DNA of 64,000 nt from Bacteroidales bacterium. Its GTDB lineage: Bacteria > Bacteroidota > Bacteroidia > Bacteroidales > UBA3663. The stretch spans positions 2,243-66,242 of the forward strand of contig JAZUEP010000063.1 of NCBI GenBank assembly GCA_045640225.1. The letters are read 5' to 3'. The notes under the pieces are model-generated. The model was not told where the DNA came from. It ran no database searches and was given only the letters and a program-made list of their open reading frames with translations. Each line of letters begins with the position of its first letter. The first letter of the stretch is position 1. Shown here piece after piece: positions 14,513-50,555 of the stretch. A program made the translations under genes and the position numbers.

Positions 14513-15231
14513 TATTCAATCCCTATCAGCTCAACACGCTGGACGGCAATCTCGCCACACAGGCCACACATCTGACGTGGGCCACGCCACAGTTGCAGGA
14601 CAATGCAGCGGTGGTGGCACTGGTACTGCTCTTCATTGCGGCCGACGTGCTGGCATGGTGTCCGAAAGGCGTGATGCGTTACCAGCTGAGATGGATTACC
14701 GACACACGCAACGCCCGCACCTTTGAAGCCTCGGTAGTGATGTATCCCTGGCTGAAGCTGGTACTGGCCGCACAGCTGTTCATCTGTTTCGGGCTGGCCC
14801 TCTACTGCTGTATCGACAGCGCCCCGGGCATCCACCTGTCGAGCCTTGGCACAGAAGATCTGAAGCAGATAGGACGCTGCATCGGAGCGCTGCTGGGATG
14901 GTACGTGCTACAGAAGACATTCGTCAACTGGCTGTGTTACCTATTCGGACAAGACGAAAAACGCACCATCATCAACCGCTCGCATCTGGCCATCTTCCTG
15001 CTGCTGGCACCATTTGCCACGCTGGCGCTAGTGGGCATAATGGCAGGATTATTTTCGACAGGAACAGCACTCAATTTGCTTGCTGCACTCTTCATTTTAT
15101 CGCAGATTTCTTTCATTTCCAATGGAATTAAGATTTTTTACGATGATTTTGGCTCGTTTTGCCTAATTTTTGCGTATCTTTGCGCACTCGAAATCGCCCC
15201 TTTGCTGATGCTTTGGACGTATTTCGGATAA
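14509..15231 (+). CDS. Polytopic membrane protein (DUF4271-like by position and topology)
   Basis: The ATG at 14509 overlaps the stop of the upstream gene (ATGA). About 240 aa, multi-TM. It lies immediately upstream of hemD, as is common in Bacteroidetes. The track start 14263 lies inside the upstream gene. Confidence 0.65.
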   Translation: MIFNPYQLNTLDGNLATQATHLTWATPQLQDNAAVVALVLLFIAADVLAWCPKGVMRYQLRWITDTRNARTFEASVVMYPWLKLVLAAQLFICFGLALYCCIDSAPGIHLSSLGTEDLKQIGRCIGALLGWYVLQKTFVNWLCYLFGQDEKRTIINRSHLAIFLLLAPFATLALVGIMAGLFSTGTALNLLAALFILSQISFISNGIKIFYDDFGSFCLIFAYLCALEIAPLLMLWTYFG

Positions 15232-15259
15232 AAATAAGCAAATACTGAAGCAAGAAAAA

Positions 15260-16003
15260 ATGAGTTTAAAGCGCATACTGGTCTCGCAGCCGACCCCCTC
15301 GTGCCCCGAAAAGTCGCCTTACTTTGACCTGCAACGGAGGTTCGGTCTGGAACTCACCTTCAAACCCTTTATTCGCATCGAGACACTCTCGGCAGCTGAG
15401 TTCCGCTCGCTCAAGATCAGCATCCCTACGTATACGGCACTCGTCTTCACCTCGCGTACTTCGGTGGAGAACTTCTTCAAACTAGCCGAAGAGCTTCGCG
15501 CCAAGCCGAACGACGAAATGCAGTACTTCTGCCTCACAGAGGCTATCGCCCTGTACCTACAGAAGTTCATCAACTTCCGCAAGCGCAAGGTACATCACTC
15601 GAAGGTAGGAAAGATCGAGGATCTGGCCCTGGTGATGAAGAAACATAACACGGAGAAGTTCCTGATGCCAGTAGCCGAAGGCCACGACGATCCGTTGCCC
15701 TGCATGACAAAGGCAAAAGTAAAGCTGACCTATGCCGTCATGTACCGCACGGTCAGCACCGAATTCACGCCTGAAGAGATTGCTTCGTATGACATGCTCT
15801 GCTTCTTCACCCCTGCAGGCATTCAGTCGCTGTTCGACAACGATCCTGATTACGTACAGGATGACCAGCGCATCGGTCTATTCGGTCCGATGACGGCCAA
15901 AGCAGCCGAGGAACGCGGACTCCGTATCGATGCACAAGGCCCTACCCCCGAGCTCCCCTCGATGGCGGCTGTACTGCAGAAATACCTGAACGATAATAAA
16001 TGA
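15260..16003 (+). CDS. hemD: Uroporphyrinogen-III synthase-like protein
   Basis: 247 aa with a HemD-like two-lobe pattern. Conserved Bacteroidetes position upstream of rnpA-yidD, with a 4-nt overlap to rnpA. Confidence 0.75.
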   Translation: MSLKRILVSQPTPSCPEKSPYFDLQRRFGLELTFKPFIRIETLSAAEFRSLKISIPTYTALVFTSRTSVENFFKLAEELRAKPNDEMQYFCLTEAIALYLQKFINFRKRKVHHSKVGKIEDLALVMKKHNTEKFLMPVAEGHDDPLPCMTKAKVKLTYAVMYRTVSTEFTPEEIASYDMLCFFTPAGIQSLFDNDPDYVQDDQRIGLFGPMTAKAAEERGLRIDAQGPTPELPSMAAVLQKYLNDNK

Positions 16004-16416
16004 AACTATACACACTGCCCAAGACCGAAAGGCTTTACCTGAGGGAATCCATTGGCGAGCTGTTTGCCAAAGGGAAATCCTTTACGGCCTTTCCTTACAG
16101 GGTGGTGTATTTAGTTACTCCCCTAAAGGGAGAAGAACAGGAGAACAAATCCCAGAACGAACGGCAGGGACGCTGTGCCATCATGGCCGTGGCTCCCAAG
16201 AAGCGCTTCAAGCACGCCGTAGACCGCAACCACGTAAAGCGCCTGACGCGCGAGGCCTACCGATTGCAGAAGCTTCCGCTGATCGAAAAGCTCGAAGCAA
16301 GCGGAAAGCAGATGGAAGTGGCCTTCATCTATGTGGACAACAAGTTCATCTCGTTTGACGAGACGTATAAGACACTTGGTCGTGCTATAGCGAAACTGAC
16401 CAAATACATCGGATGA
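16000..16416 (+). CDS. rnpA: Ribonuclease P protein component
   Basis: 138 aa. Basic RnpA motif [22 protein letters not shown]. Overlaps yidD, the classic rnpA-yidD pairing. Confidence 0.9.
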
Positions 16417-16625
16417 TGAAACGGATATTCATAAGCATGATTCGCTTCTACCAGCGATACATTTCGCCCCTGACACCACCGGCTTGCAGATATACCCCCA
16501 CGTGTTCGCAATACACGCTGGAAGCAATACAGAAGTACGGTGCCATCAGGGGCTCGTGGTTGGGTCTCAAGCGCATCTGCCGCTGTCACCCATGGGGAGG
16601 ATCAGGATACGATCCGGTGCCTTAA
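16413..16625 (+). CDS. yidD: Membrane protein insertion efficiency factor YidD
   Basis: 70 aa. Signature YQRYISPL...[19 protein letters not shown]. Confidence 0.92.
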
Positions 16626-31957: not shown

Positions 31958-32467
31958 ATGAAAAAAATCTTATTCACCTGCCTGGTTGCCCTTATTGCCA
32001 GTGCCAATGCGTTCGCTCAGAAGTATGCCCTTATCGACATGGACTACATCCTGAAGCAGATTCCACAGTACGAGATGGCCAACGAACAGCTCAACCAGAT
32101 CAGCAAGCGTTGGCAAACTGAAGTCGAGACACTTTCGGCCGAAGCAGAACAGCTCTACAAGCAGTATCAGGCCGATATGGTCTACCTCACCAAGGAGCAG
32201 CAGAATCAGCGCGAGACTGCCATTCTGGCCAAGGAGAAAGAGGTACAGGATCTGCGACTGAAGTATTTCGGTCCAGAAGGCGAGCTCTATCAGAAGCGCA
32301 ACAGCCTGGTTGGTCATATCCAGGACGACATTTACGAAGCTGTCAAGGAAATTGCCGAGAAGAACAGCTTCTCAATGGTGATCGATCGTGCATCGGCCGA
32401 AAGCATCATCTATGCCAGCCCTAAGATCGATATCTCAAAGGAGGTGCTTCAGAAGATGGGTTATTAA
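31958..32467 (+). CDS. OmpH/Skp-family periplasmic chaperone (copy 1)
   Basis: 169 aa. Signal peptide and coiled-coil Q/E-rich core. Position downstream of bamA. Confidence 0.85.
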   Translation: MKKILFTCLVALIASANAFAQKYALIDMDYILKQIPQYEMANEQLNQISKRWQTEVETLSAEAEQLYKQYQADMVYLTKEQQNQRETAILAKEKEVQDLRLKYFGPEGELYQKRNSLVGHIQDDIYEAVKEIAEKNSFSMVIDRASAESIIYASPKIDISKEVLQKMGY

Positions 32468-32546
32468 GGCAACAGTATAAACCAGCTTGCCCAAAATTAC
32501 AGAAACAAATTATAAAAAAAATAACTAACAAATCAAAAACATCAAA

Positions 32547-33056
32547 ATGTTCAAGAAATTTATCGTAGCAGCCATCATTGCTGTTGCAAGCATCACATCG
32601 TATGCTCAGACCGCTCTCAAAATCGGAACCGTAAACCTCGACGAAGTTATGCAGGCAATGCCTGAGACTTCGGTCCTCGAGAAGGAGCTCTCAACCCGCA
32701 CCCAGAATTTCCAGAATCAGGCTAAGACCATGCAGGACGAGTTCCAGAGCAAATATCAGGCTTACGTTGAGCAGCACGACTCACTCGACGAACTGACCCG
32801 TGGCGTCCGCGAGGACGAACTTCGCTCACTTCAGCAGCGTGCCGAGCAGTACCAGCAGATGAGCTATCAGCAGATTTCGCAGTACCGCGAGCAGCAGCTG
32901 GCCATGATTCAGGAGAAACTCTTCAAGGCAGTCAACACCGTCGGCGATCGCGAAAAGTATGTTGCTATCTTCCCAACTAACGAAGCTACCTACTTCTCTG
33001 CCGCTCTGACCACGGACGTTACCGCCCTTGTCAAGACCGAACTGGGAATTAAGTGA
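32547..33056 (+). CDS. OmpH/Skp-family periplasmic chaperone (copy 2)
   Basis: 169 aa. Signal peptide and coiled-coil core. Confidence 0.85.
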   Translation: MFKKFIVAAIIAVASITSYAQTALKIGTVNLDEVMQAMPETSVLEKELSTRTQNFQNQAKTMQDEFQSKYQAYVEQHDSLDELTRGVREDELRSLQQRAEQYQQMSYQQISQYREQQLAMIQEKLFKAVNTVGDREKYVAIFPTNEATYFSAALTTDVTALVKTELGIK

Positions 33057-33571
33057 TGAAACGTATACTGATACTGGGCATGCTGACCCTTGCAATCCTT
33101 TGCAACGTCAGCGCCCAGACTCCTACGCCACGATTCGGCAACATCGAGATGGAGGACATCTTCGCTCTGTTGCCCGAAAACAAAATGGTAGAGGACGAGT
33201 TGGCACAGCTCCAGGCTGCCTACGACGAAGAGATTCAGAAAATGGGCGAAGACTATCAGCTCAAGGTGAGCGATTTTGTAGCCGTACAACAAACGCTGGA
33301 TCCTAACATTGCGGAAGCCCGTGCTCAGGAGATTGAGCAGCTGCAACAGCGCATCCAGCAATTCCGCAAGAAGGCAGCACAAAGCCTCCGCGAACAACGT
33401 CAGGCCAAGACCGCCCCTATCATCGAACGCGTATCGCAGGCCATCAAGGCCGTAGGCGAGCGTTATGGCTACACCTACATCTTCGACCTCAAGCAGGCTG
33501 GTATCCTCTACTTCTCGCCTGAGCAGTGCGACGACATCACGCCTCTGGTTCGCCTCGAACTAGGCCTGTAA
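33053..33571 (+). CDS. OmpH/Skp-family periplasmic chaperone (copy 3)
   Basis: 172 aa. Signal peptide and coiled-coil core. 4-nt overlap with copy 2. Confidence 0.8.
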   Translation: MMKRILILGMLTLAILCNVSAQTPTPRFGNIEMEDIFALLPENKMVEDELAQLQAAYDEEIQKMGEDYQLKVSDFVAVQQTLDPNIAEARAQEIEQLQQRIQQFRKKAAQSLREQRQAKTAPIIERVSQAIKAVGERYGYTYIFDLKQAGILYFSPEQCDDITPLVRLELGL

Positions 33572-37946: not shown

Positions 37947-38363
37947 TTATTCAGATTCTGTAATTCGTGAAGAAAGGATTTCTTTTACTCGGTTAAGAAG
38001 GGTTCGTGTGGGTTCAAACTTTTCCTCAATGTCTTGCTTTGTCGCTTTGAAAAAACAGTCATAGTCTGATTTTTCTCTCATGGTCTCCAATTGGGAATAC
38101 AACTTGCCTTCGGCATCGGTTAGTTCACCCGTTATGACATAGTATTGACCAACAAGGCTTTTTATGCCATTATGTTTGTGCGAAGGATGTTGGTCCTGGA
38201 TCAACAAGGCACGAAAAGCATTGACCATTGAGTAATATAGTCTATTAGCAGCCATTGACCATGCTTCTATTTGGCATGCTTTTTCTGCATCATCCCAACA
38301 TTGGTCAGCCTTTTCGATGTATAGTTCAACCATCGCATTACGGTTATCAGATTCAAGGCTCAT
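37947..38363 (-). CDS. HEPN-domain protein (toxin-like partner of the MNT-HEPN pair)
   Basis: 138 aa. HEPN (PF05168-like) pattern ...ANRLYYSMVNAFRALL...HKHNG...LETMREKSDYD. 4-nt ATGA overlap with the upstream MNT gene. Confidence 0.8.
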   Translation of the reverse strand: MSLESDNRNAMVELYIEKADQCWDDAEKACQIEAWSMAANRLYYSMVNAFRALLIQDQHPSHKHNGIKSLVGQYYVITGELTDAEGKLYSQLETMREKSDYDCFFKATKQDIEEKFEPTRTLLNRVKEILSSRITESE

Positions 38364-38674
38364 AAGATTGATATTTTATCTTTTTCTACGTTATTGTAAA
38401 ATGGGCTGGAAACACGTTGTGCCCATTGCTCATAGGTATAGAGTATAGGACTTACATCTGCCTGGTTTTTCCATCCCCATAAAACAAAAGGATAGCAATA
38501 TGCATCCTCATCTGATGAATTTACGGAACTCTTATTGACAAGGATAAGCAGATCCCAGTCAGAATCCTCGTTAGCTTCCCCTCTGGCCCGTGATCCATAA
38601 AGCCAAACCTTACTACCATCTGGCAGCACTTGTTTAGCCACATCACGGAATCCTTGAATAATATTTCCATTCAT
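38360..38674 (-). CDS. Minimal nucleotidyltransferase (MNT) domain protein
   Basis: 104 aa. Pol-beta NTase motif LYGSRARGEANEDSDWDLLILV. Confidence 0.85.
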   Translation of the reverse strand: MNGNIIQGFRDVAKQVLPDGSKVWLYGSRARGEANEDSDWDLLILVNKSSVNSSDEDAYCYPFVLWGWKNQADVSPILYTYEQWAQRVSSPFYNNVEKDKISIL

Positions 38675-38714
38675 ACTCTTCTAAAATTTAAGATAATATT
38701 CCCATATTGCGCCG

Positions 38715-38789
38715 CAAATATACATCTTTTTTTTCATTCCACAATCAAAACACCCCGAAAAAGTGCAGAGGATGGACTTTTTCGGGGTT
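38715..38789 (-). promoter_or_regulatory. Cassette boundary module A, copy 2 (terminator hairpin plus promoter of the MNT-HEPN unit)
   Basis: Hairpin arms 38753-38764 / 38776-38787. TATATTTG -7 box at 38722-38715. The MNT ATG lies 40 nt downstream. Confidence 0.75.
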
Positions 38790-39241: not shown

Positions 39242-39295
39242 ATTCCCTGTTATGTGGAGATGCGGGTCGACCCGCATCTCCACATAACAGGGAAT
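39242..39295. repeat. Perfect 54-bp palindrome (27+27, no spacer)
   Basis: ATTCCCTGTTATGTGGAGATGCGGGTC|GACCCGCATCTCCACATAACAGGGAAT, verified base by base. It lies between two divergent promoters. Confidence 0.95.
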
Positions 39296-39378
39296 ACGGT
39301 ATTTTTACAAAATTGTTCATTTGGCAAATCAAAATTTAATGCGTATCTTTGCCGTGTGAAAAATCAAAAAATAACATT

Positions 39379-40119
39379 ATGAACAAACTAAAAGAAATTT
39401 ACCGCGAGTTAATCTCCGCAATTAAAGAGTCGAATCTGGTATCGTATGATACCGTTAAATTTGGTGTTCAAACAGGACGGTTATATCCTGCGAATTCTCC
39501 GAATGTTGGAATGATGGTTATCGGGCGATCTTGCAATGGTTGGACAGCTTACAGCGACGATGTCGATGTCCTGTTTGGCGAAGGCAAATCATCAATGTTT
39601 AGTACAGAACCTTTTAGCTTTTTAAAAGAGGATAATAACCAATACAATCCAAAGCGCTCAGCTTTCTGGAGAGTAGTAGAAGCTATTGCAGCGACGTTTT
39701 ATGGCGAAAAACAATGGTCAGATTACATAGCGTGGAGTAACCTTTATAAAGTTTCACCAGAAGAAGGTAACCCCAACCGGACACTCGGCGGCCTTCAGTA
39801 CAAGCATTGCGTAGAGATTCTACGATACGAAATAGAGATGCGGTCACCAAGCATCATTATTTTCCTCACAGGCGATGACTCTAAAGACTGGTTGACAGAA
39901 GATTTTATAAAGTCTGCATGTGGAGGTATCGTCCCATCCTCCTTCACGGAGATCAAATGGGACAAATTTCGGTTGCTTTATTCAAAAATCAGCAATGACA
40001 GAGCAATAATCATCACCGAACACCCCCAAGGGAAGAAGGAGCAACCTCATATTGAAGCTATAATAGATTGTATTCGAAAAGCTAACATCAATTTATATAT
40101 TAATTCTCGCCACAAGTAA
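39379..40119 (+). CDS. Uracil-DNA glycosylase superfamily-like protein (family unassigned)
   Basis: Start at MNKLKEIY (39379), downstream of TTTG, 20 nt, TATCTTTG (39344-39351). UDG-like layout: MVIGRSCNGW (motif-1 position), SNLYKVSPEEGNPNR...C...L..EI....PSIIIFLTG, and a late ITEHPQG (motif-2 position). Confidence 0.5.
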   Translation: MNKLKEIYRELISAIKESNLVSYDTVKFGVQTGRLYPANSPNVGMMVIGRSCNGWTAYSDDVDVLFGEGKSSMFSTEPFSFLKEDNNQYNPKRSAFWRVVEAIAATFYGEKQWSDYIAWSNLYKVSPEEGNPNRTLGGLQYKHCVEILRYEIEMRSPSIIIFLTGDDSKDWLTEDFIKSACGGIVPSSFTEIKWDKFRLLYSKISNDRAIIITEHPQGKKEQPHIEAIIDCIRKANINLYINSRHK

Positions 40120-42164: not shown

Positions 42165-42237
42165 AAATGTTCATAGATTATTTCTCAAAAGTACCAGCCA
42201 TTACCAATTTTGGAAAATCTTGTGGTACTATGCGAGG

Positions 42238-42310
42238 CAAATATACACATTTTTTTCATTTCTCAATCAAATCACCCCGAAAAAGTGAATGGGATGCGCT
42301 TTTTCGGGAT
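42238..42310 (-). promoter_or_regulatory. Cassette boundary module A, copy 3
   Basis: Hairpin arms about 42275-42286 / 42298-42308 (10 bp). TATATTTG -7 box at 42245-42238. Confidence 0.7.
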
Positions 42311-42378
42311 GATATTATACGTTTTATTGAGGTTAACCCTCTTCTATGCTTGACTTAAATGAATGTGTCGGATATATA

Positions 42379-42435: not shown

Positions 42436-42463
42436 AATATCGTGTCCTCTTTAAATCAATTTA

Positions 42464-42666
42464 TGAGTCCACTTGAAAAAGTGCCATTTTTTGATAGCCC
42501 TTTTGGGAATCCTTTCTTTTTGTAAGCAATTTTCACAACAAAATACAGAATACAGACTGTTTCAAATAAAAACTATTCGATTTATTCTGAAAATTGACTG
42601 CAAGAAAGTATCGAACTATCATTTTGCAAGTATTTATTTAACGTCCGACTTTTTCAAGTGGACTCA
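42464..42666. repeat. Perfect 19-bp inverted repeats flanking a 165-bp AT-rich segment
   Basis: TGAGTCCACTTGAAAAAGT (42464-42482) and its exact reverse complement (42648-42666). The right arm abuts the stop of the 335-aa gene. Confidence 0.9.
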
Positions 42667-42667
42667 T

Positions 42668-43675
42668 TTATTCTTTTCTGGAGTTCTTTCTTTTACGATA
42701 CCACGTGCAGACGCTACGATACTTACTGTCAATGAAGTCTGAGATTTCGAATGCTTCACCTTCTTTGTCTTTTTCTTTTAGCAGCTTGTCAACCCATTCT
42801 CCAAGCTTCTGTTGCTTTCCGTCAAATGCTTGAGCTCCATCTTCATAATACTCCTGCTGAACGAAATCGGCCATAAGCATGAGAAATGAATAAGCATTTT
42901 TTCCGTGTTCTTGGATATTACGTTTAATCATATTCTCCAATTTTCCAAGAGCTTCAATCAGCACATCAGCTTCTGGAGACAGGTCTCGGTTCGGTTTCTT
43001 GTAGTCCAATACTTTACAAGTCAAAGGCATCATATCCTCTTCGTCCACAAAGATTTCGCTGAGCTTTTGAATCTTTTCCATGAAAGTTGCTTCAATGTCG
43101 CGAATGAAGTCAAAATCCCCTTTGCCGAGATGTTTTTCTATTTTATCATGAATATCTGATAAAGGGTTGCCATTGTGATTCGCTTTCAGTTCTTGTGTCA
43201 AATCCGGTACAAGAATAGAGTAATTATATCTGTCTTTCACCCTATGGGCGAAACCAATCTGATAGCTCAGCGATGCAGTCTTGTTGTAGCTGTTTCTCAT
43301 ACGAATAAATGCTGACCACCCCTCGTTAGCTAGTGGCTGGAATCCATCAACCTTCCTAAAAATATCAATAAGACATGAACCTCTATTGTTAGACAAATAA
43401 ACATCTTGAACCATGATATCCGAATCTTGTGCCAAATTGAAAAGCCTTTTAGCAATCCATCGTTGAAGATTGAATGCATCTTGATTTAAGACTAAGCAAT
43501 ACGTAGCTCCCACAATTGTAAAATAACTCTCTTTTTCGATATCAACGACGGCAGCATGTCTGAATGCGCGGCGTGCGTCAGCTAAGTATCCTCCACTGGT
43601 CTTTTCGAACGACCAATATGCAGGTAAAAGTTCTACTTCGAAAAATGCAGATTTCAGCTCTAAATTGTGTGGCAT
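42668..43675 (-). CDS. DUF932-like protein (tentative), last gene of the R-M-like operon
   Basis: 335 aa. TYCLVLNQDAF and IRMRNSYNKTASLSYQIGFAHRV resemble the DUF932 core (y.lv.N..af ... NShdgs.al....G..R.v). C-terminal helical K/E-rich half. Confidence 0.5.
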   Translation of the reverse strand: MPHNLELKSAFFEVELLPAYWSFEKTSGGYLADARRAFRHAAVVDIEKESYFTIVGATYCLVLNQDAFNLQRWIAKRLFNLAQDSDIMVQDVYLSNNRGSCLIDIFRKVDGFQPLANEGWSAFIRMRNSYNKTASLSYQIGFAHRVKDRYNYSILVPDLTQELKANHNGNPLSDIHDKIEKHLGKGDFDFIRDIEATFMEKIQKLSEIFVDEEDMMPLTCKVLDYKKPNRDLSPEADVLIEALGKLENMIKRNIQEHGKNAYSFLMLMADFVQQEYYEDGAQAFDGKQQKLGEWVDKLLKEKDKEGEAFEISDFIDSKYRSVCTWYRKRKNSRKE

Positions 43676-43689
43676 AATGTAATTGTATA

Positions 43690-43818
43690 TTATTGGTTTA
43701 GCGAAGTTTTAAAATTCTTCCCATACTGATCTGCCGCATCGGTGAGTTTGTCATCGATGGGCAGATTCATATCACGCAGAGATTTCAGCGTGGTGTATAG
43801 TTCTTTGAGGGTTGCCAT
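43690..43818 (-). CDS. 42-aa ORF filling the gap between the methyltransferase and DUF932-like genes (MATLKELYTTLKSLRDMNLPIDDKLTDAADQYGKNFKTSLNQ)
   Basis: Hand translation. The start lies 12 nt after the MTase stop, and the stop lies 14 nt before the next start. Coding status is unproven. Confidence 0.35.
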   Translation of the reverse strand: MATLKELYTTLKSLRDMNLPIDDKLTDAADQYGKNFKTSLNQ

Positions 43819-43830
43819 AGCTTTGACGTT

Positions 43831-46800
43831 TTATTCATCTCCCGCCATGCGGAACTCTAACTCATAATTTTTGATGAAGTCGGTTTCTTCTGGAGTGAGG
43901 CCATAAAGCGGACCAATGTAGTCGTCTATGCGATCGATGATGGCTTTTGACTTGACAATCTTGTATTCCTTGAATTCGGAAACATTGTATCTTGAATCTC
44001 CACTTGATTGCCTAACATTTGCATGTGCTTCGACATCATGTTGGTACTCATCGTAGAAATTGTTCAAAACATCGATTTGTTCATCGGTAAGATTTGGTAT
44101 GGTAAATGATAGAAGTTCATCACTCTTCCAATCCAAATTATTTGAGATTATCTGATAATACCAAAAAGAAAGGTTGCTGCTGAGTATACATCCAATGGCA
44201 TTAGCAAGTTTCTTTTCAAACAAGATTGCCTTCTCCTTGGTTGATCCTGTACTATAATTTGTTACAATTTTGAAGTACCTACCGCCTGTTGTTCTATAAT
44301 AAATAGGATCACCATCTTCGCGGACATATGAGGAAAGCATTGTTTTGTTCCACACCTTGTCAAGAATACGCTTCTCAGTTTCTAATCCTATTTTAGGTAT
44401 ACGACCAAACAACTTCAAATGCCCTAACACATTTGTAAATTGCAAGGTATCAATCAGCGCTTGCAGATCAAAGTCACGCCCTTTCCTGTGCATCTTTGTG
44501 GAAAGAAGTTGCTTACAAGGTGTCTTTGTCTTCTGAAACATAAGAATTGAAGTATTCACAACTGCATTCTTGAAAACCGGTTGAGGACGCACTGAGTATG
44601 AAGAAATCTTAATGCCTCGGCAGTTTTCGAGCAGCAGTTTATGGACACCAGAAAGAGAGTCACTCGAAGTCAACGAGATAGGCACAATATAAGTCATGAA
44701 TGCATCTTTGCGAAGGAGCCAGTAAGCCAATTCGATGAACATAGTATAAGAATCCATCGAACCTTTCTGTTTGCCTTTAATTGTTTTTGTCGTGTTATAG
44801 AACTTCTTCACTATGGCCTTATCATTTTCGCTTAACTTTGCTCCATACGGAGGATTGCCTATGACAATATCAAATCCATTTTTATCAGGATTAGTATTAT
44901 CAAAAGCATCTGAGAACATCACCTTGTAGTCAAAGAAAGGCAAACTCAACTTCGCTCTTTCCGCAAGACTAATTGTTTCATCATTCAAAAGAGCACGAAG
45001 CTGTTCTCCGGTTACGAGTATGTCTCGAAGATTCCCTTTCAATTGAGACTTGAGTTCCACATCTGGCTTACCGAATAACTCAGTTTGGACAGAATCGCCA
45101 CCTGCATTAATATCGGCAACAAGCTGAAGAGCCACAATGTTTAAGATGCAATGTTTGATATTGATAGAGCATTGTAGTTTATCATCTCCAGACAAATAGA
45201 AATATTGTTTTTGGAACTCACGCAGTTTTTGCTTTTCTTTACGAATAGCTTCAATCTTGCCATGGACTTGTCTGTCGCTGATATTTACATACTTTCCGTT
45301 AAAAGTCGTAAAGAGCGAATTTCCTTGCATAATCTTGTAATCAAGATTTGGTAGCACTTCTGGGGTTGCTTCGTCAACTACCAGTGTAAGCCAGAAACGA
45401 AGACGTGCAATATCAACAGCGCCTTTTTCAAGGTCAACGCCATAAATATTCTCTTGAATTATGTGACGCTTTATCTCTACCGAATTGTCGAAATTCTCAA
45501 TAGCACCACGGCAGAAGAACAGCTCTTTGAGTAGCCCCATTGGGAAAGCGCCAGAACCGATAGCAGGGTCACAAATCTTTATGCTTGCCAATCGTCTGTC
45601 AACCTCTTCAATAATATCTGCAGGCAATACATTTATATTATAAGAGGTAACAAACTCACGAATCTGCTCACGGTACTCTCGCGGGAAATCATTTTGTAAG
45701 TACGAGATAAGCGACTCCTTGCACATGTATCGTACAATCTCCTTCGGTGTGTAATATGCACCTTTGTCTTTGTTGTCTTCCAGCAGGTTTTCGAATATCT
45801 GTCCTAACATCTCAGGATCAATACCCACCTCGGCATCACTTGGATCATTCTCGTCGATGGTGAAGTTGTATTGATTGAACATCTTCAGCAATTCGCTGAA
45901 ATACTCTTTCGGGAATACTGTACGTACCTCATCGTCCTCATCACGACCAAATAAGCCGCCATTGAGGTAAGGGATTCGCAGGACGCCATTATTCGGAAAA
46001 TCCTTAATCTGAGTGTCGAAGATGTCACCGTTTGCGCTTCTGTCTGTATCAAGAGCTTCGTCAAATAGAGGCTCGAGTATTTCGTCGAGGAAGTTCTCCT
46101 GTTGTGCTTCTGTTGCCTGATGGAATAAGTTGTACATAAAGTTCTTGTCTCCATCATTCCAAGTCTTGCCAGGTTCCACGCCCATCCATCCTTTCTTTTG
46201 TAGGAAGTGCAGGAACACAATACGGCCAAGGAGCTTCTTTACATAATCGCGTACCCGCTTGTCGTCACGTCCGAAGTCTGCATACATTTGCGGATGAGGT
46301 TCGTGAAACACCTTTTCTTTCCAGCCGCCATCTTTCTTCACAAATTTCTTGCCAGTAATAAACATCACGAACTTCTCGTACTGATCCTTGTACTTCTTGA
46401 AGAACTCATCTGAGAGAGCCTCAACGTCGAAAGCCTTCACAATGTCGTCACGCTGCACATTACCTTTCTTGCCAAAAAGCTTCAAGAAGTTTTGTGCGGC
46501 GGTTCGACATGATTGACCTGGACCGAGAAGGAAAGTGTATCGTTTTGCTTCGGTAATGTTCTTATCGTCCTTCTGGCAGAACGAGAAACGCCAGTCGAGT
46601 TGCCAGTTATCCTTGTAGTGGAAGATGATGAAGGCAGAGGAATACGTGTTCATGATACGGCGAATGAGCTGCTGGATGCCCACACGATTGCGCTGCATCT
46701 GTACGCTGTCATTCACAGTTACGTCAAAGATGTCAATCGTAACATGACCAACGCTGACGGTACCATATTTGATAATATCTTTGATGCCAGTTCGTATAGC

Positions 46801-46953
46801 CATTCCCTGTAATTCCTCATCCTCGAGCACAGGCAGTTGCCACGCAGTTTCGTAATTCTCTTCGCCAAAGATAGGGAAAATAATGGTTTCGAGGAACGAC
46901 TCCTCGCCTTGATACTCACTGCTGAGATACGCTTGTAGTTTTTGCTCGTCCAT
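43831..46953 (-). CDS. Gamma-class N6-adenine DNA methyltransferase with specificity region (Eco57I/PglX-like large MTase)
   Basis: 1040 aa. Motif I ICDPAIGSGAFPMG precedes motif IV DIVIGNPPYG. A long C-terminal region is compatible with a TaqI-like TRD. The N-terminal ~350 aa lack an obvious E-x-K nuclease motif. Confidence 0.85.
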   Translation of the reverse strand: MDEQKLQAYLSSEYQGEESFLETIIFPIFGEENYETAWQLPVLEDEELQGMAIRTGIKDIIKYGTVSVGHVTIDIFDVTVNDSVQMQRNRVGIQQLIRRIMNTYSSAFIIFHYKDNWQLDWRFSFCQKDDKNITEAKRYTFLLGPGQSCRTAAQNFLKLFGKKGNVQRDDIVKAFDVEALSDEFFKKYKDQYEKFVMFITGKKFVKKDGGWKEKVFHEPHPQMYADFGRDDKRVRDYVKKLLGRIVFLHFLQKKGWMGVEPGKTWNDGDKNFMYNLFHQATEAQQENFLDEILEPLFDEALDTDRSANGDIFDTQIKDFPNNGVLRIPYLNGGLFGRDEDDEVRTVFPKEYFSELLKMFNQYNFTIDENDPSDAEVGIDPEMLGQIFENLLEDNKDKGAYYTPKEIVRYMCKESLISYLQNDFPREYREQIREFVTSYNINVLPADIIEEVDRRLASIKICDPAIGSGAFPMGLLKELFFCRGAIENFDNSVEIKRHIIQENIYGVDLEKGAVDIARLRFWLTLVVDEATPEVLPNLDYKIMQGNSLFTTFNGKYVNISDRQVHGKIEAIRKEKQKLREFQKQYFYLSGDDKLQCSINIKHCILNIVALQLVADINAGGDSVQTELFGKPDVELKSQLKGNLRDILVTGEQLRALLNDETISLAERAKLSLPFFDYKVMFSDAFDNTNPDKNGFDIVIGNPPYGAKLSENDKAIVKKFYNTTKTIKGKQKGSMDSYTMFIELAYWLLRKDAFMTYIVPISLTSSDSLSGVHKLLLENCRGIKISSYSVRPQPVFKNAVVNTSILMFQKTKTPCKQLLSTKMHRKGRDFDLQALIDTLQFTNVLGHLKLFGRIPKIGLETEKRILDKVWNKTMLSSYVREDGDPIYYRTTGGRYFKIVTNYSTGSTKEKAILFEKKLANAIGCILSSNLSFWYYQIISNNLDWKSDELLSFTIPNLTDEQIDVLNNFYDEYQHDVEAHANVRQSSGDSRYNVSEFKEYKIVKSKAIIDRIDDYIGPLYGLTPEETDFIKNYELEFRMAGDE

Positions 46954-46961
46954 AGCTTAAG

Positions 46962-49900
46962 TTATTTGGCAAGCGCAAGGTACACCTCGGGTACGCCTGT
47001 CTGCTTAGTTTGTTCTGAAACGATATTGTCTAACTTTCGGGCAATGATGCCATCTATTTCCTCTTGCGTAAGGACAAAGAGAGACTGCTGATCATCGTAC
47101 ACCTCCCGACCAATGGCATTGATAGTTCGGATAATATCAGAATTTCCCTTGTTCACCATTTGGAAGGCTGCATCGAGGAGATTCTGTGAGTGCTGGCTCA
47201 ACTGACCAGATTCACTCATCTTGACGATGACGCCCTTGGCGTTGGTTGCCGCCTTATCTTTCACCTTGTAGCTGTTGAGCTTTGCAAGGTGTTGGCCAAC
47301 GGTGCGGATAGCGGTACGACATTTTTGCTCCCAATCAGATGGGAGGTCGATACGAGGAGCGTCAGGTGCGGTAATGAAGTTTGGATAGAAGTCAATACCG
47401 GTGACAATCTTGCCCTTTCCTTCTGCATCGACACGAACGAAGAGACCTTTCATCTTTGGAGTGCGCACCACAAAGTACGCAGCACCATCAGCAGTTGTTG
47501 TTGCAAGCTGAAGGTCATCCTCCTTCTGGCAGATAGCCTCGTAGCGCAGAGGATTCGCATCACGATACTTCTTCAACTGATGGATGTATTGCTCGTATGG
47601 TGACTCCTCGCCATTGACAATGCCGTTGAGGTCGTAGTGTTCCACAGTTTCGTCCTCGGTGAACACCTTGCTGTCCTCTCCGAAAAGTGTATGGAACGAC
47701 TGAAGTTTGATGTGTGCTTTCTCTACCAATTGTATCTGCTGGTCTCCTTGGGCACTTGGCATGAAGTTATAAACGTAAACGTATGGCTCGCTGGAGCCGA
47801 TGCGGTTCACGCGGCCGATGCGCTGCATCAGGCGTGTTGAGTTCCATGGGGTATCATAGTTCAGGATGCAGTTGGCGCGATGCAGGTTGATACCCTCGGC
47901 AAGTACCTCGGTGGTGATGATAATCTGATAGTCATTCTTCCACTCACCCTTGTAGTTGGCATCGAAGTTCTCTTGAATCTTCTGTTGCATCTCATCGCGA
48001 TTAGCAGCTGTGATAGCCAGCGTCCTATTCTTGAATCCCTTATTTTCGCAGACACGCTTCAAGGTATTGACCGTATCAATCGCTTCGGAGAAGATAACAA
48101 GCTTCTGTGGACGGTTGCGTTCGGCGTTGAATAGTACAGGCTTCAATGCCTCCTTGAACTCATCGAGCTTAGGATCCTCCGAGTTCTTTGCCCAACGGTC
48201 ATAGAGGTTGCAAATGAGCTCGTAATCAGTCTTCAGAAGTTCGATGTAGGCGGGATTGAAAGCGTCGCGAGTGTATTCGGCATTCTGCTCTTTTTCGTTC
48301 TTGCCCTTTTCTGTGAGCTTCTTGATACGGGCACGTATGTCATCGGCGCATTCGGCAAACGTCACCTTGTGTCCACGCTTCTCAGTCTTAGCCTTCTCGT
48401 CAAGTTCGGCATTCACGTCAAACTGCGGACAGATAAAGATGGCGTTGTTCTCCCACATGCGAATCATGTTGGCTGTGTAATTACGGAGATTGAGAAGTGA
48501 CTGCGTGAAGGCGGAGAATGAACTTTCGAGCCGCTTTACAAGCAGAATCTGCATGATCTTGGCAAGCTGTTCGCCCACCTTCTCGGGGTCACGCGAACCA
48601 CGACCCTGATACTTCTGTAGATCCTCAGGCTTAGTGAGATATTGGATGGCACGATAGCGGTAGTAGCAAAGGTAGTCGGAGTTGTTGAACTTGAAATCAG
48701 GCGTTGGCGAAATCAGGTTCATGGTGTCGGCAAAGAGCTGAGCCAGTTGGTCATCCATCTTGTACTTGAGGCTGTGGGGACCACTGATGGCTGGGAATAC
48801 CAAATGCTGTTTCTCCATGTCTGCGGCATAGTACTTTTTGATGTCGGTACGAGTGCGACGAACCAGCATATCGCACAGAACGGCATCGCGTATGGTGGCA
48901 GAAATTTTCTTGAAGGCTTCGTTGATTTCCTCCAGACACTGTTCGTCCTCAGGTGTCTTGATGGGTTTTGCGGAAATTTCGCTTGCCTCCTTGCGGAGTG
49001 CGAGGTATTCGGCCATTATGCCAGAGAAGAACGCTTCAAGATTGCGACCGTCCACCTTTTCGAGGGTGCAGTACTGATGGTTGCGTTCGAAGAGGTAAAT
49101 CTGATTCTTCAGGTCGTTTGGCGTATTGTTCTGTGGAGTAGCAGAGAGAAGACCGATGTAGGGATAGTTGCCCGTGCTGGCACCAATCTGAGCAATGAGG
49201 TCATCAAGGGCGTTGTACATCTGTGTGCCACTATTGCGGAACTTATGGCTCTCGTCAATGATGATAAGGCCGTAGTTGTGATACTCCAAATTGCCCTCAA
49301 ACTCCCCGCTATCAGTATCCGCATCTTCGTCATCTTCTACGAGATTACCGATTGATCCTGTGGTGATAAAGTCGATGAGCGGTTCTATCTGATCATCGCT
49401 ATCCTTATCAAATTCGCGAATGGTATCAACCCAAGCCTTCTTGATGGCAGGAGGCGTGACGATGAGCACTTTGCGTTCACGACCGTCATCTGGATAGTTG
49501 AGGAAATACTTTATGACGAGCGTACCCACGATGGTTTTGCCCAATCCTACTACATCGGCAAGCATAAAACCGCCATGTGCCTTCATGATGCCGAAGCATT
49601 GCTTCACGGCATCCATCTGGTATTCGAGTGGCGAGAAGTCCTTGGGCAGGTAGCTGGAGATGACCTGCGTGGTATCGACATCCAGAAGGTCACCAAACTT
49701 GTATTGCAGAAGTTTGAGGTAGAGTTCGTAGGGAGTGAGAGGTGCAGAGAGTTCCTTCTGCTTCTCTTTCTCTATCTTTTCGACAGGTTTAGAAGGCTGA
49801 AGTATTTGCTCCAGGAACTCTTGGGTCCAATCCTTTGAGAGAGCCCATTTCTCTTCGAACCATGTGATATGACCTTTTCTTGTAGGCTTCAATTCGGCAT

Positions 49901-50555
49901 TGATCATGTATGGATCGTTCTCCAGCACATTCAATTCAGCGTTTCCTATCAGTCCTTTTTCGGTGAAGTTACTACTGCCTACGATTGCATACATAGGTTT
50001 GTCGTCATCGTCTGACGAGGTGAAGATATAGCATTTGCTGTGCAAGAACTGTTTCTCGCCAGTCTCATCATCTTCGAGAATGTGAATCTCGATTTTCGGT
50101 TTGTCTTCTTCATCGTACATTACCTCAGTTTTGCACACTAACGGAGCGTCATAATGATGTATGGCATCGTTGTCACAGAACTTCAGTAGCAGGTCAATGA
50201 CGTTTCTGTACTCTTCCTTCAAGTTGTCGGCCAGATCATTGATACTTGTTTTGATGAAGTCTTGAGGATAGTTCTTGCTGTCCTTGAACTTTGGTTCCTT
50301 CAAGAGTTTGGCATAGACATACGGATCCTTGCCAATAAGCAACTTGAGTTTAGAATCAGGTCGCTGTAGGAAAGCCGTAAGCTCATCTACGACCAATGCC
50401 ATACCTGGTATATCCCAATAGCCTGTGGCTATACGGATAGTGTTGATCTCTGGATTGGATATACACTCTTTGAATGCATTAACCATCAGCAGATTCTCAC
50501 TGTTGTCAATTAGTGTTTTATTCATATAACAAAGATTAGATAATTCCAGCATCAC
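46962..50555 (-). CDS. PLD-nuclease / SNF2-family helicase fusion protein
   Basis: 1197 aa. HKD-like motif FLHSKCYIF...IVGSSNFTEKGL. Helicase motifs DVVGLGKTIVG (I), IIIDESHKFRN (II), LLSATPQNN (III) and QRIGRVNRIGS (VI). An alternative start is at MNKTLIDN (50525). Confidence 0.88.
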   Translation of the reverse strand: MMLELSNLCYMNKTLIDNSENLLMVNAFKECISNPEINTIRIATGYWDIPGMALVVDELTAFLQRPDSKLKLLIGKDPYVYAKLLKEPKFKDSKNYPQDFIKTSINDLADNLKEEYRNVIDLLLKFCDNDAIHHYDAPLVCKTEVMYDEEDKPKIEIHILEDDETGEKQFLHSKCYIFTSSDDDDKPMYAIVGSSNFTEKGLIGNAELNVLENDPYMINAELKPTRKGHITWFEEKWALSKDWTQEFLEQILQPSKPVEKIEKEKQKELSAPLTPYELYLKLLQYKFGDLLDVDTTQVISSYLPKDFSPLEYQMDAVKQCFGIMKAHGGFMLADVVGLGKTIVGTLVIKYFLNYPDDGRERKVLIVTPPAIKKAWVDTIREFDKDSDDQIEPLIDFITTGSIGNLVEDDEDADTDSGEFEGNLEYHNYGLIIIDESHKFRNSGTQMYNALDDLIAQIGASTGNYPYIGLLSATPQNNTPNDLKNQIYLFERNHQYCTLEKVDGRNLEAFFSGIMAEYLALRKEASEISAKPIKTPEDEQCLEEINEAFKKISATIRDAVLCDMLVRRTRTDIKKYYAADMEKQHLVFPAISGPHSLKYKMDDQLAQLFADTMNLISPTPDFKFNNSDYLCYYRYRAIQYLTKPEDLQKYQGRGSRDPEKVGEQLAKIMQILLVKRLESSFSAFTQSLLNLRNYTANMIRMWENNAIFICPQFDVNAELDEKAKTEKRGHKVTFAECADDIRARIKKLTEKGKNEKEQNAEYTRDAFNPAYIELLKTDYELICNLYDRWAKNSEDPKLDEFKEALKPVLFNAERNRPQKLVIFSEAIDTVNTLKRVCENKGFKNRTLAITAANRDEMQQKIQENFDANYKGEWKNDYQIIITTEVLAEGINLHRANCILNYDTPWNSTRLMQRIGRVNRIGSSEPYVYVYNFMPSAQGDQQIQLVEKAHIKLQSFHTLFGEDSKVFTEDETVEHYDLNGIVNGEESPYEQYIHQLKKYRDANPLRYEAICQKEDDLQLATTTADGAAYFVVRTPKMKGLFVRVDAEGKGKIVTGIDFYPNFITAPDAPRIDLPSDWEQKCRTAIRTVGQHLAKLNSYKVKDKAATNAKGVIVKMSESGQLSQHSQNLLDAAFQMVNKGNSDIIRTINAIGREVYDDQQSLFVLTQEEIDGIIARKLDNIVSEQTKQTGVPEVYLALAK

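Follow-up and report, generated by a model that had tools for sequence, protein, structure and literature searches.

The 64,000-nt window analysed here is a stretch of a Bacteroidales bacterium genome (UBA3663; assembly GCA_045640225.1, contig JAZUEP010000063.1, positions 2,243-66,242, forward strand). Within it lie four consecutive open reading frames (ORFs), all on the minus strand and separated by gaps of 8, 12 and 14 nt. In order of reading, they encode a fusion of a phospholipase D (PLD) nuclease domain with an SNF2 ATPase, a large adenine methylase, a 42-amino-acid (aa) product, and a protein of 335 aa that resembles the DUF932 family (Table 1). We propose, with a probability of about 0.62, that the region is a mosaic in which the first two genes form a two-gene, ATP-dependent unit resembling a restriction-modification (R-M) system, the 42-aa ORF is what remains of a longer gene, referred to here as gene C, and a DUF932-family cassette has replaced the body of gene C. 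A first-pass annotation of the window had described the same four packed ORFs, and the ORF listing confirms its coordinates exactly, but it had treated the four genes as one system. That proposal depended on co-conservation of the two downstream genes with the methylase-helicase pair, and our co-occurrence check found that they are not co-conserved with it.

The PLD-SNF2 and methylase genes form a genuine, tightly co-conserved two-polypeptide unit, as the first-pass annotation had supposed. A genome scan that used one genome per species returned 80 PLD-SNF2 loci, mostly from Prevotella, Bacteroides and other Bacteroidales, with some from Treponema, Kiritimatiellia and metagenome-assembled genomes of Firmicutes. 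Among the 69 loci that extend at least 400 nt beyond the PLD-SNF2 homolog, a homologous methylase is located directly downstream in 63 and within 0.5-1.5 kb in another five, and only one lacks it (68/69 overall); the gap between the two genes is typically 2-20 nt. Clustering of all ORFs within 6 kb of the pair across 64 loci revealed no universal third gene, and no DrmA/B, PglZ, BrxC or YprA-type partner recurs beside the pair in that set. Within the window, DrmA, DrmB/DUF1998, PglZ and BrxC were not found among the proteins scanned with Pfam, PADLOC and NCBIfam profiles, which agrees with their reported absence. The pair has been described before: Milman et al. (2023; PMC9881135, Table 3) list it, in the same gene order, as a genomic context of programmed inversions, with inversion occurring at the specificity end of the methylase in some loci. 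The pair is unnamed and without an assay in that study, which calls the relatives 'homologous to Cj0031', a Type IIG enzyme. The window shows the layout of that report and of the PADLOC model C3a139, with a PLD-SNF2 coding sequence immediately upstream of a large Eco57I-type methylase coding sequence, and differs from the loci of Milman et al. in having no invertase or silent cassettes. We found neither a system name for the pair nor an experimental test of it in the literature.

Profile searches confirm that the first gene joins an HKD/PLD module to an SNF2 ATPase, followed by a C-terminal domain of approximately 240-280 aa. The database copy of the protein has 1187 aa, which makes the ATG at 50525 a likelier start than the GTG at 50555. 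Pfam places PLDc_2 at aa 39-215, SNF2/ResIII at 308-453 and Helicase_C at 804-920. In an alignment of 20 homologs of 57-100% identity, the residues of the HKD motif (H162, K164 and G183-S-S-N186 in 1187-aa numbering, or HxK...GSSN) are invariant, as are the Walker A (GLGKT), DESH and QRIGRVNR (motif VI) sequences of the motor. The sequence neighbours of the protein in the PDB are Rad54, DDM1 and RapA. Homologs fall into more than 3600 clusters at 90% identity, mostly from Bacteroidales, and all but one among the 120 matches listed align over 97-99% of the length. Conserved residues reach the C-terminus, and we consider the C-terminal domain a candidate for methylase docking or DNA binding. The best PADLOC match is the 'HKD+Snf2' model C3a139 (4.5e-42), with DrmD (5e-35) and BrxHII also matched. 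The NCBIfam models DISARM_DrmD and DrmD_b reach 148.9 and 103.7 bits, respectively, far short of their cut-offs of 610 and 950. Matches to Hma, Zorya ZorD and Dpd DpdE were rejected as generic similarity to the SNF2 C-lobe. Upstream of the gene, the segment 50575-50770 contains a hairpin with a 13-bp stem (50719-50690), and metagenomic relatives differ there by several indels or joints, which points to a hypervariable leader or promoter region.

The second gene encodes an N6-adenine DNA methyltransferase of the gamma class, with Pfam matches to Eco57I (8.7e-26), N6_Mtase and MmeI_Mtase and at least 8000 matches in a homolog search. Its S-adenosylmethionine-binding motif (DPAIGSGAFP) and its NPPY motif (GNPPYG) are invariant across homologs. 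The nearest large solved relatives are PglX and BrxX (1e-21), and the protein reaches 53.9 bits with the NCBIfam model BREX_1_MTaseX, whose cut-off is 500. Compared with a self-contained Type IIG enzyme, the protein has the gamma-class core and the C-terminal target-recognition domain (TRD) and lacks the N-terminal PD-(D/E)xK domain. The N-terminal region is itself conserved across 32 pair-associated methylases, at IF(D/E)77(V/I)T, R88-N-R90, Q94, R98, F111-H-Y113 and W121-R122, and in these proteins a D...ExK triad is not conserved. Where the window reads IFDVTV...VQMQ, the family reads IF(D/E)VT...V-x-M-x; the position of the ExK lysine is occupied by T in 28 of the 32, and that of the upstream aspartate mostly by serine. 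The methylase thus appears to be without a nuclease motif, which was first noticed in the window and holds at the motif level family-wide. An AlphaFold (AF2) model of aa 1-400, built from a database protein, shows an alpha/beta domain with a mean confidence (pLDDT) of 79. A Foldseek search with this model found no significant fold match in the PDB (best E 0.011, template-modelling score (TM) <=0.22). To call the N-terminus a 'degenerate PD-ExK fold' is an unproven guess from the order of its secondary-structure elements, and the Foldseek search against the PDB returned nothing to match it.

At the other end of the methylase, residues ~660-1075 of the family profile, roughly the last 380, match CamA (1e-44) and BseCI (2e-33) over their catalytic and specificity domains. 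Many homologs align only over query residues 1 to ~810-830, which indicates that the specificity end is modular. The GC content of the TRD is 38.2%, compared with 47.8% for the PLD-SNF2 gene. In related PLD-SNF2 loci, a serine recombinase is encoded downstream in 14/64, and inverted silent cassettes of the TaqI_C type are present in 11/64; for each of these clusters, one locus was checked against Pfam. The combination of an invertase with inverted TaqI_C cassettes constitutes a phase-variable specificity shufflon, an example of which lies at positions 15062-16480 of locus L012, in addition to 13 other PLD-SNF2 loci. An inverted TRD shufflon was also considered for the window and rejected, because no inverted copies, invertase or silent cassettes are present there.

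The apparent conservation of the third ORF comes solely from its first ~30 codons, which begin a longer gene. The methylases of L089 (92% identity) and L090 (86%) are the closest relatives, and an intact gene C of 224 and 221 aa, respectively, begins 11-12 nt past them. The 42-aa ORF is 74-76% identical overall to the intact 221-224-aa gene C that follows the methylase by 11-19 nt in L089, L090 and L083, and a gene C hidden Markov model (HMM) matches it at 4e-11. The two are near-identical over ~30 residues (MATLKELYTTLKSLRDMNLP.DDKL..AAD), after which the ORF continues for 12 unrelated codons and a stop. By blastn, homology to the R-M module of L089 ends at 43748, and homology to the cassette of L001 spans 42667-43710. 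A horse-metagenome contig (run X6) follows the window as far as 43725 and from there reads on into an intact gene C (...LEEKIIKEEI). In addition, an independent gut-metagenome contig (X1) covers 43508-43831 with zero mismatches to the window, and the junction is therefore real and not an assembly artefact. Judged by these alignments, the 42-aa ORF is a pseudogene stump of gene C and not a conserved micropeptide; the earlier impression of conservation was correct for the first ~30 codons and mistaken for the remainder, which is junction sequence. Gene C is an occasional accessory, found in ~10/91 loci, and has no match in Pfam, the PDB or PADLOC. It recurs right after Eco57I-type methylases and hardly differs between loci with methylases only ~39% identical to that of the window, which indicates that it moves as its own module.

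The fourth gene probably belongs to a divergent branch of the DUF932 family (PF06067). In direct scans against Pfam, PADLOC, NCBIfam and PHROGs, the 335-aa protein, the 42-aa product and a 490-aa protein encoded beside the locus had no match. A word-based search with the 335-aa protein returned one relative (89% identity), the gene for which follows a TaqI_C fragment and a leucine-rich-repeat gene on a contig of 3.2 kb. An exhaustive phmmer search extended the family to 232 representative clusters of ~320-350 aa. Among 81 aligned relatives, 52 match PF06067/DUF932 (best 1.4e-15), and a relative from Pseudomonas veronii matches PF06067 at 2.3e-10, above the cut-off. The AlphaFold model of the protein (pLDDT 93.6) has 38 phage-protein matches in BFVD by Foldseek at E<=1e-3 (best 3e-11), several of them named DUF932 or TIGR03299, with a query-normalised TM of 0.29-0.61 over roughly the whole length. 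The protein therefore deserves the DUF932-like label it had been given: it shares the fold and, judged by its relatives, the family of the DUF932/TIGR03299 'phage/plasmid-like protein' group and differs in belonging to a divergent subfamily, which has an NSYNKT motif and was found in chromosomal or plasmid defence loci. Foldseek found no significant match to the model in the PDB, and the family profile matched no PDB sequence. The fold does not allow a mechanism to be read, the protein is not in PADLOC, and the literature that mentions PF06067 assigns the family no role.

We also examined the surroundings of the DUF932-like gene and its relatives. The DUF932-like HMM had zero matches in 87 related PLD-SNF2 loci, and DNA homology to the sole close relative comprises the ORF and a leader of ~35 nt and ends at the stop codon. 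Within the mosaic reading, and at the same probability, the gene would be a separate single-gene cassette rather than a component of the pair. The first-pass annotation had noted conjugative elements and phages as the usual setting of DUF932, a remark that needs amending for this subfamily. A tblastn search of plasmids and phages for relatives gave one plasmid match and no phage match, and a search with the trimmed alignment gave two metagenome loci and no viral locus. In contrast, all seven independent contexts retrieved, the window and L001 included, are defence loci. On a P. veronii plasmid (L092; LT599585, 87339-104184), the DUF932-family gene is located within a type 1 bacteriophage exclusion (BREX) operon (BrxB, BrxC, PglX, PglZ, BrxL), immediately after PglX and followed by a GmrSD gene, ahead of PglZ and BrxL. 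Two other contexts are an McrBC/WYL/Zorya island and a Dcm-EcoRII-Z1-DUF4420-AIPR cluster. In L099/L100, a DUF1016 gene, a different Eco57I/TaqI_C methylase, gene C and the DUF932-like gene stand in a row, and in GCA_016648615 a 220-aa gene lies upstream of the DUF932-like gene and two GmrSD genes lie downstream. We regard this placement as a genuine lead, with seven contexts being too few to prove a functional link. Two side observations concern these loci. Each gene of the L092 BREX operon is annotated merely as 'hypothetical protein' in its record. In two unrelated defence islands (L096, 10998-11474; L095, 8922-9485), a small protein, homologous between the two, is encoded after the DUF932-like gene and has a phosphatase-like HCxxGxxRS motif and a weak DSPc match (0.0032).

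Signals around the fourth gene bear on its transcription. On the coding (minus) strand, no terminator-like site was detected between the methylase and the DUF932-like gene, and the latter is probably co-transcribed by read-through. Approximately 350 nt past its stop codon is a hairpin with a 25-bp stem, next to which a Bacteroidetes-type -7 box precedes the 490-aa gene. A GC-rich hairpin and the -7 box TATATTTG together make up an element of ~80 nt that occurs twice in the window, upstream of a minimal nucleotidyltransferase (MNT)/HEPN gene pair (38708-38786) and upstream of the 490-aa gene (42231-42308). It is also found in L001 (3174-3218) and in L083 (9265-9343), where it directly follows an intact gene C. 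The placement of the hairpin and -7 box, together with their recurrence in L083, points to the DUF932-like gene as the final one of its transcription unit, which would end at the hairpin, and to a separate unit of the 490-aa gene and an adjacent helix-turn-helix (HTH) gene, with the -7 box as its likely promoter. The same interval contains an inverted repeat (42453-42677) whose 30-nt arms match at 87%, share a perfect 20-nt core (ATGAGTCCACTTGAAAAAGT) and enclose 165 nt; the right arm overlaps the stop codon of the DUF932-like gene. In metagenome run X2, a relative joins 42414 directly to 42667 and has no copy of the 252-nt segment between them. This segment is either a small mobile element, similar to a miniature inverted-repeat transposable element, or an invertible one.

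Table 1. Coordinates of the features discussed, in the window unless a related locus is named.
Feature	Position	Strand	Length, basis or remark
ORF 1, PLD-SNF2, longest reading	46962-50555	-	1197 aa when read from GTG
PLD(HKD)-SNF2 fusion gene, putative restriction/motor subunit	46962..50525	-	start at ATG 50525
PLD/HKD nuclease domain, single HKD motif	49911..50441	-	Pfam PLDc_2 3.4e-07; RE_NgoFVII PLD
SNF2-type superfamily 2 (SF2) ATPase motor, both RecA lobes	47694..49634	-	SNF2-rel_dom, ResIII, Helicase_C
C-terminal domain of PLD-SNF2 protein	46965..47693	-	~240 aa (240-280 by Pfam edge); no Pfam match past aa 920
ORF 2, gamma-class N6-adenine DNA methyltransferase (Eco57I/PglX/MmeI-like), putative modification and specificity subunit	43831..46953	-	1040 aa; start 8 nt past PLD-SNF2 stop; Pfam, PADLOC, NCBIfam
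Methylase N-terminal domain, aa 1-130	46564..46953	-	conserved; no D...ExK nuclease motif
C-terminal TRD (TaqI_C/CamA-like), variable module	43834..44502	-	profile alignment to CamA, BseCI
ORF 3, 5' remnant of gene C (~220 aa)	43690..43818	-	42 aa; codons 1-~30 (43726-43818) homologous; tail and stop are junction sequence
Recombination or deletion breakpoint, R-M module / DUF932-like cassette	43711..43725	.	blastn and metagenome contigs
ORF 4, divergent DUF932-family gene	42668..43675	-	335 aa; single-gene cassette 42667-43710; family, fold, cassette limits
Hairpin (42266-42318) and Bacteroidetes-type -7 box TATATTTG (42245-42238)	42231..42318	-	likely transcript end and promoter of the next unit
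Gene C copy, L089	5343-6017		~210-225 aa
Gene C copy, L090	4355-5020		~210-225 aa
Gene C copy, L083	8561-9229		~210-225 aa
Gene C copy, L075	16631-17269		~210-225 aa
Gene C copy, L099	6104-6754		~210-225 aa

Strict linkage of the two genes, PLD and motor motifs that are intact, a methylase with no nuclease motif and a swappable TRD all fit an ATP-dependent R-M design. We infer that the pair has a split, PLD-armed design similar to Type ISP or Type III, which would make it a new variant of ATP-dependent R-M. With its swappable TaqI_C-like domain at the C-terminus, the methylase would recognise a particular DNA sequence and methylate the host genome; on unmethylated incoming DNA, it would recruit or license its 1187-aa partner. 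The SNF2 motor would then translocate along the DNA, and the single-HKD PLD domain would cut. A lone HKD motif makes an active site only together with a second copy, as established for Nuc and BfiI, and cutting would therefore probably occur when two complexes meet, either by collision or by dimerisation. The DUF932 cassette would now ride at the 3' end of the transcript. Outsourcing of cleavage to the PLD-translocase, as proposed in the first-pass annotation, is the best available reading; we infer it, along with the physical coupling of the two proteins, the defence phenotype and the co-transcription of the DUF932-like gene.

In its logic, the pair is closest to the Type ISP and Type III systems. 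Type ISP enzymes (LlaGI, LlaBIII) have in common with it a nuclease, an SF2 ATP-dependent translocase, a gamma-class N6-adenine methylase and a TRD, and restriction that needs translocation and the encounter of two enzymes is expected in both. However, Type ISP enzymes are single polypeptides with an Mrr/PD-ExK nuclease, whereas the window pair consists of two ORFs 8 nt apart with a PLD/HKD nuclease and an SNF2-type motor, and our sequence searches of the PDB returned no Type ISP structure. Type III systems (Mod and Res) likewise consist of two genes, which encode a specificity-bearing methylase and a dependent helicase-nuclease fusion. Mod is of the beta class and Res has a C-terminal PD-ExK domain, whereas the window encodes a gamma-class, Eco57I/PglX-like methylase and an N-terminal PLD domain on an SNF2 protein, in reversed gene order with the nuclease-motor gene first. 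SauUSI, a Type IV enzyme, also fuses an N-terminal PLD nuclease to an SF2 ATPase for ATP-dependent restriction, but it is a single protein with its own recognition domain, targets modified DNA and has no partner methylase. The obligately linked methylase of the window pair implies the opposite logic, namely cutting of unmodified DNA.

In its ancestry, the pair is closest to the core of SNF2 helicase and PglX-like methylase that is common to class 1 DISARM (defence island system associated with restriction-modification), BREX-3 and ARMADA (bioRxiv 10.1101/2025.09.15.676423). Class 1 DISARM (DrmA, DrmB, DrmC, DrmD, DrmMI), ARMADA II and BREX type 3 each encode an SNF2 helicase (DrmD/BrxHII/ArmA-like) beside a methylase of the PglX/Eco57I type. 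In class 1 DISARM, the PLD nuclease activity resides in DrmC, whereas the SNF2 protein of the window has the PLD domain fused to it. The window also differs from these systems in having no DrmA/YprA helicase, DUF1998, PglZ, BrxC or UvrD partner, none of which recurs in related loci. With respect to class 1 DISARM, DrmA and DrmB were not found among the window proteins scanned, and the 64 related loci gave no recurrent neighbour of their size. DrmD and DrmMI are not reached at the equivalog level, the PADLOC match to DrmMI (2.5e-24) being much weaker than those to the IIG models. With respect to BREX, PglZ and BrxC/PglY are missing, and the methylase falls below the family cut-off for PglX. The BREX-related 'BR' systems (NAR 2026, PMC12839542) were considered and rejected, as they are anchored on DUF499 ATPases and PglZ.

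Several observations weigh against the mosaic reading or its proposed mechanism. The N-terminal domain of the methylase is conserved and its model is of medium confidence (pLDDT 79), and a non-canonical nuclease may be present there. The best PADLOC model for the methylase, over residues 51-426, is a Type IIG REase-MTase (2e-72), which means that curators may have filed relatives as self-contained IIG enzymes. BREX and DISARM, which combine SNF2 and PglX-like proteins, do not necessarily act by simple cleavage. The DUF932-like gene begins 14 nt behind the preceding ORF with no terminator-like site between them, and its recurrence beside Eco57I-type methylases elsewhere may reflect a functional link.

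The alternative that survives best is one that we nevertheless consider unlikely. Gene C and the DUF932-like gene would form an optional accessory module of Eco57I/PglX-type methylase systems, serving as a sensor, regulator, back-up effector or counter-counter-defence, and the window would hold a decayed copy in which gene C was lost and DUF932 kept. More generally, a defence-associated DUF932 clade, often with gene C, might dock at the 3' end of Eco57I/PglX-type methylase operons and modulate or back up those systems, although we would bet against it. The hosts of such docking would be the PLD-SNF2 pair, the DUF1016-linked methylase and BREX-1, in the last case between PglX and PglZ, an extension that we view with the same doubt. 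The gene orders in L099/L100, GCA_016648615 and the P. veronii BREX-1 operon fit such a module, as does the finding that seven of seven contexts are defence loci. However, this sample is small, the DUF932-like genes of L095 and L096 follow McrBC or AIPR genes and not a methylase, and gene C mostly occurs without DUF932 (in ~8/10 PLD-SNF2 loci that carry gene C). Furthermore, PADLOC contains neither protein, and the fold of the DUF932-like protein gives no mechanism.

Less probable still is that the pair functions in the manner of BREX or DISARM, with self DNA being marked by methylation and the SNF2-PLD protein blocking replication, or remodelling or nicking foreign DNA, without site-linked double-strand cleavage, or that it is mainly a phase-variable epigenetic regulator. 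The shared SNF2 and PglX-like core, the PADLOC matches to DrmD, BrxHII and DrmMI and the kinship of the methylase to PglX and BrxX favour this possibility, and the shufflons described above generate methylome variation. However, the catalytic residues of the HKD motif are strictly conserved, and DrmA/B, PglZ, BrxC and YprA, which mark those systems, are absent from the window and do not recur beside the pair in the 64 loci clustered.

A further alternative, which we judge improbable, is that the methylase is a self-sufficient Type IIG enzyme and that the PLD-SNF2 protein is an independent neighbour, similar to SauUSI or Mokosh, with the two being adjacent because defence genes cluster. The PADLOC REase_MTase_IIG match includes the N-terminal region, the likening of relatives to Cj0031 points in the same direction, and single-protein PLD-helicase defences exist, with the NCBIfam model 'phospholipD_antiphage' matching the PLD-SNF2 protein at 8e-30. 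Yet the two genes lie next to each other, a few nt apart, in 68 of 69 loci drawn from several phyla, far beyond what island clustering would give. The methylase N-terminus has neither a conserved D...ExK nor a nuclease fold match, and the NCBIfam stand-alone family matches of the PLD-SNF2 protein are all far below curated cut-offs and involve the helicase C-lobe only. In practice, system-calling tools probably label the methylase as IIG and leave its partner unassigned.

Finally, we regard it as highly improbable that all four genes form one novel, integrated system of the R-M kind in which the 42-aa peptide and the DUF932-like protein act as subunits. The shared strand, the short gaps and the lack of a terminator-like site before the fourth gene would suit such a system, but the DUF932-like gene accompanies none of the 87 related loci, the closest relatives have an intact gene of which the 42-aa ORF represents the first ~30 codons, and the close DUF932-like relative is homologous only over the ORF and its leader.

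The locus is embedded in a low-GC tract (~38-43%, at ~34-46 kb of the window). With the locus and a flank as query, the E. coli genome gave no match, and homologs point to Prevotellaceae/Bacteroidales from animal guts. One flank encodes the housekeeping proteins BamA and three OmpH paralogs, and the other, with ~51% GC, encodes arginine-biosynthesis genes. The three OmpH/Skp-like paralogs stand in tandem directly after BamA (31958-33571) and mark the core-genome edge of the island; this arrangement is ordinary in Bacteroidota. The same low-GC island contains a toxin-antitoxin-type pair (37947-38674) of a HEPN protein (138 aa) and a minimal nucleotidyltransferase (104 aa, MntA-like). A perfect 54-nt palindrome (39242-39295; 27-nt arms, zero spacer) lies just upstream of an ORF of 256 aa (39349-40119), the product of which weakly matches the uracil-DNA-glycosylase superfamily. 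Between 40124 and 42164, the 490-aa protein, which has no detectable family, is followed by an HTH_3 protein of 116 aa that matches components B/C of the PADLOC candidate system PDC-M64 (2.7e-26). The two genes may be a small module of their own, with a role in defence or regulation.

The PLD-SNF2 and methylase pair is among the commonest large defence-like operons in gut Bacteroidales and is also present in Treponema and Kiritimatiellia. The pair itself had already been noticed in the literature, and what is new is the association of DUF932 with defence. If our reading of the pair is correct, it would represent a minimal, two-protein form of the SNF2 and PglX-like-methylase core that underlies DISARM, BREX-3 and ARMADA, with a built-in PLD nuclease and a swappable, sometimes phase-variable specificity. 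As such, it would offer a tractable model for how methylation status is coupled to the motor in the larger systems, and it would be relevant to phage therapy and to the genetic manipulation of Prevotella and Bacteroides. The recurrence of a DUF932 clade in defence loci provides a new lead on a very widespread family, and if the accessory-module alternative were true, it would give DUF932 its first functional foothold, as a plug-in shared by R-M and BREX systems.

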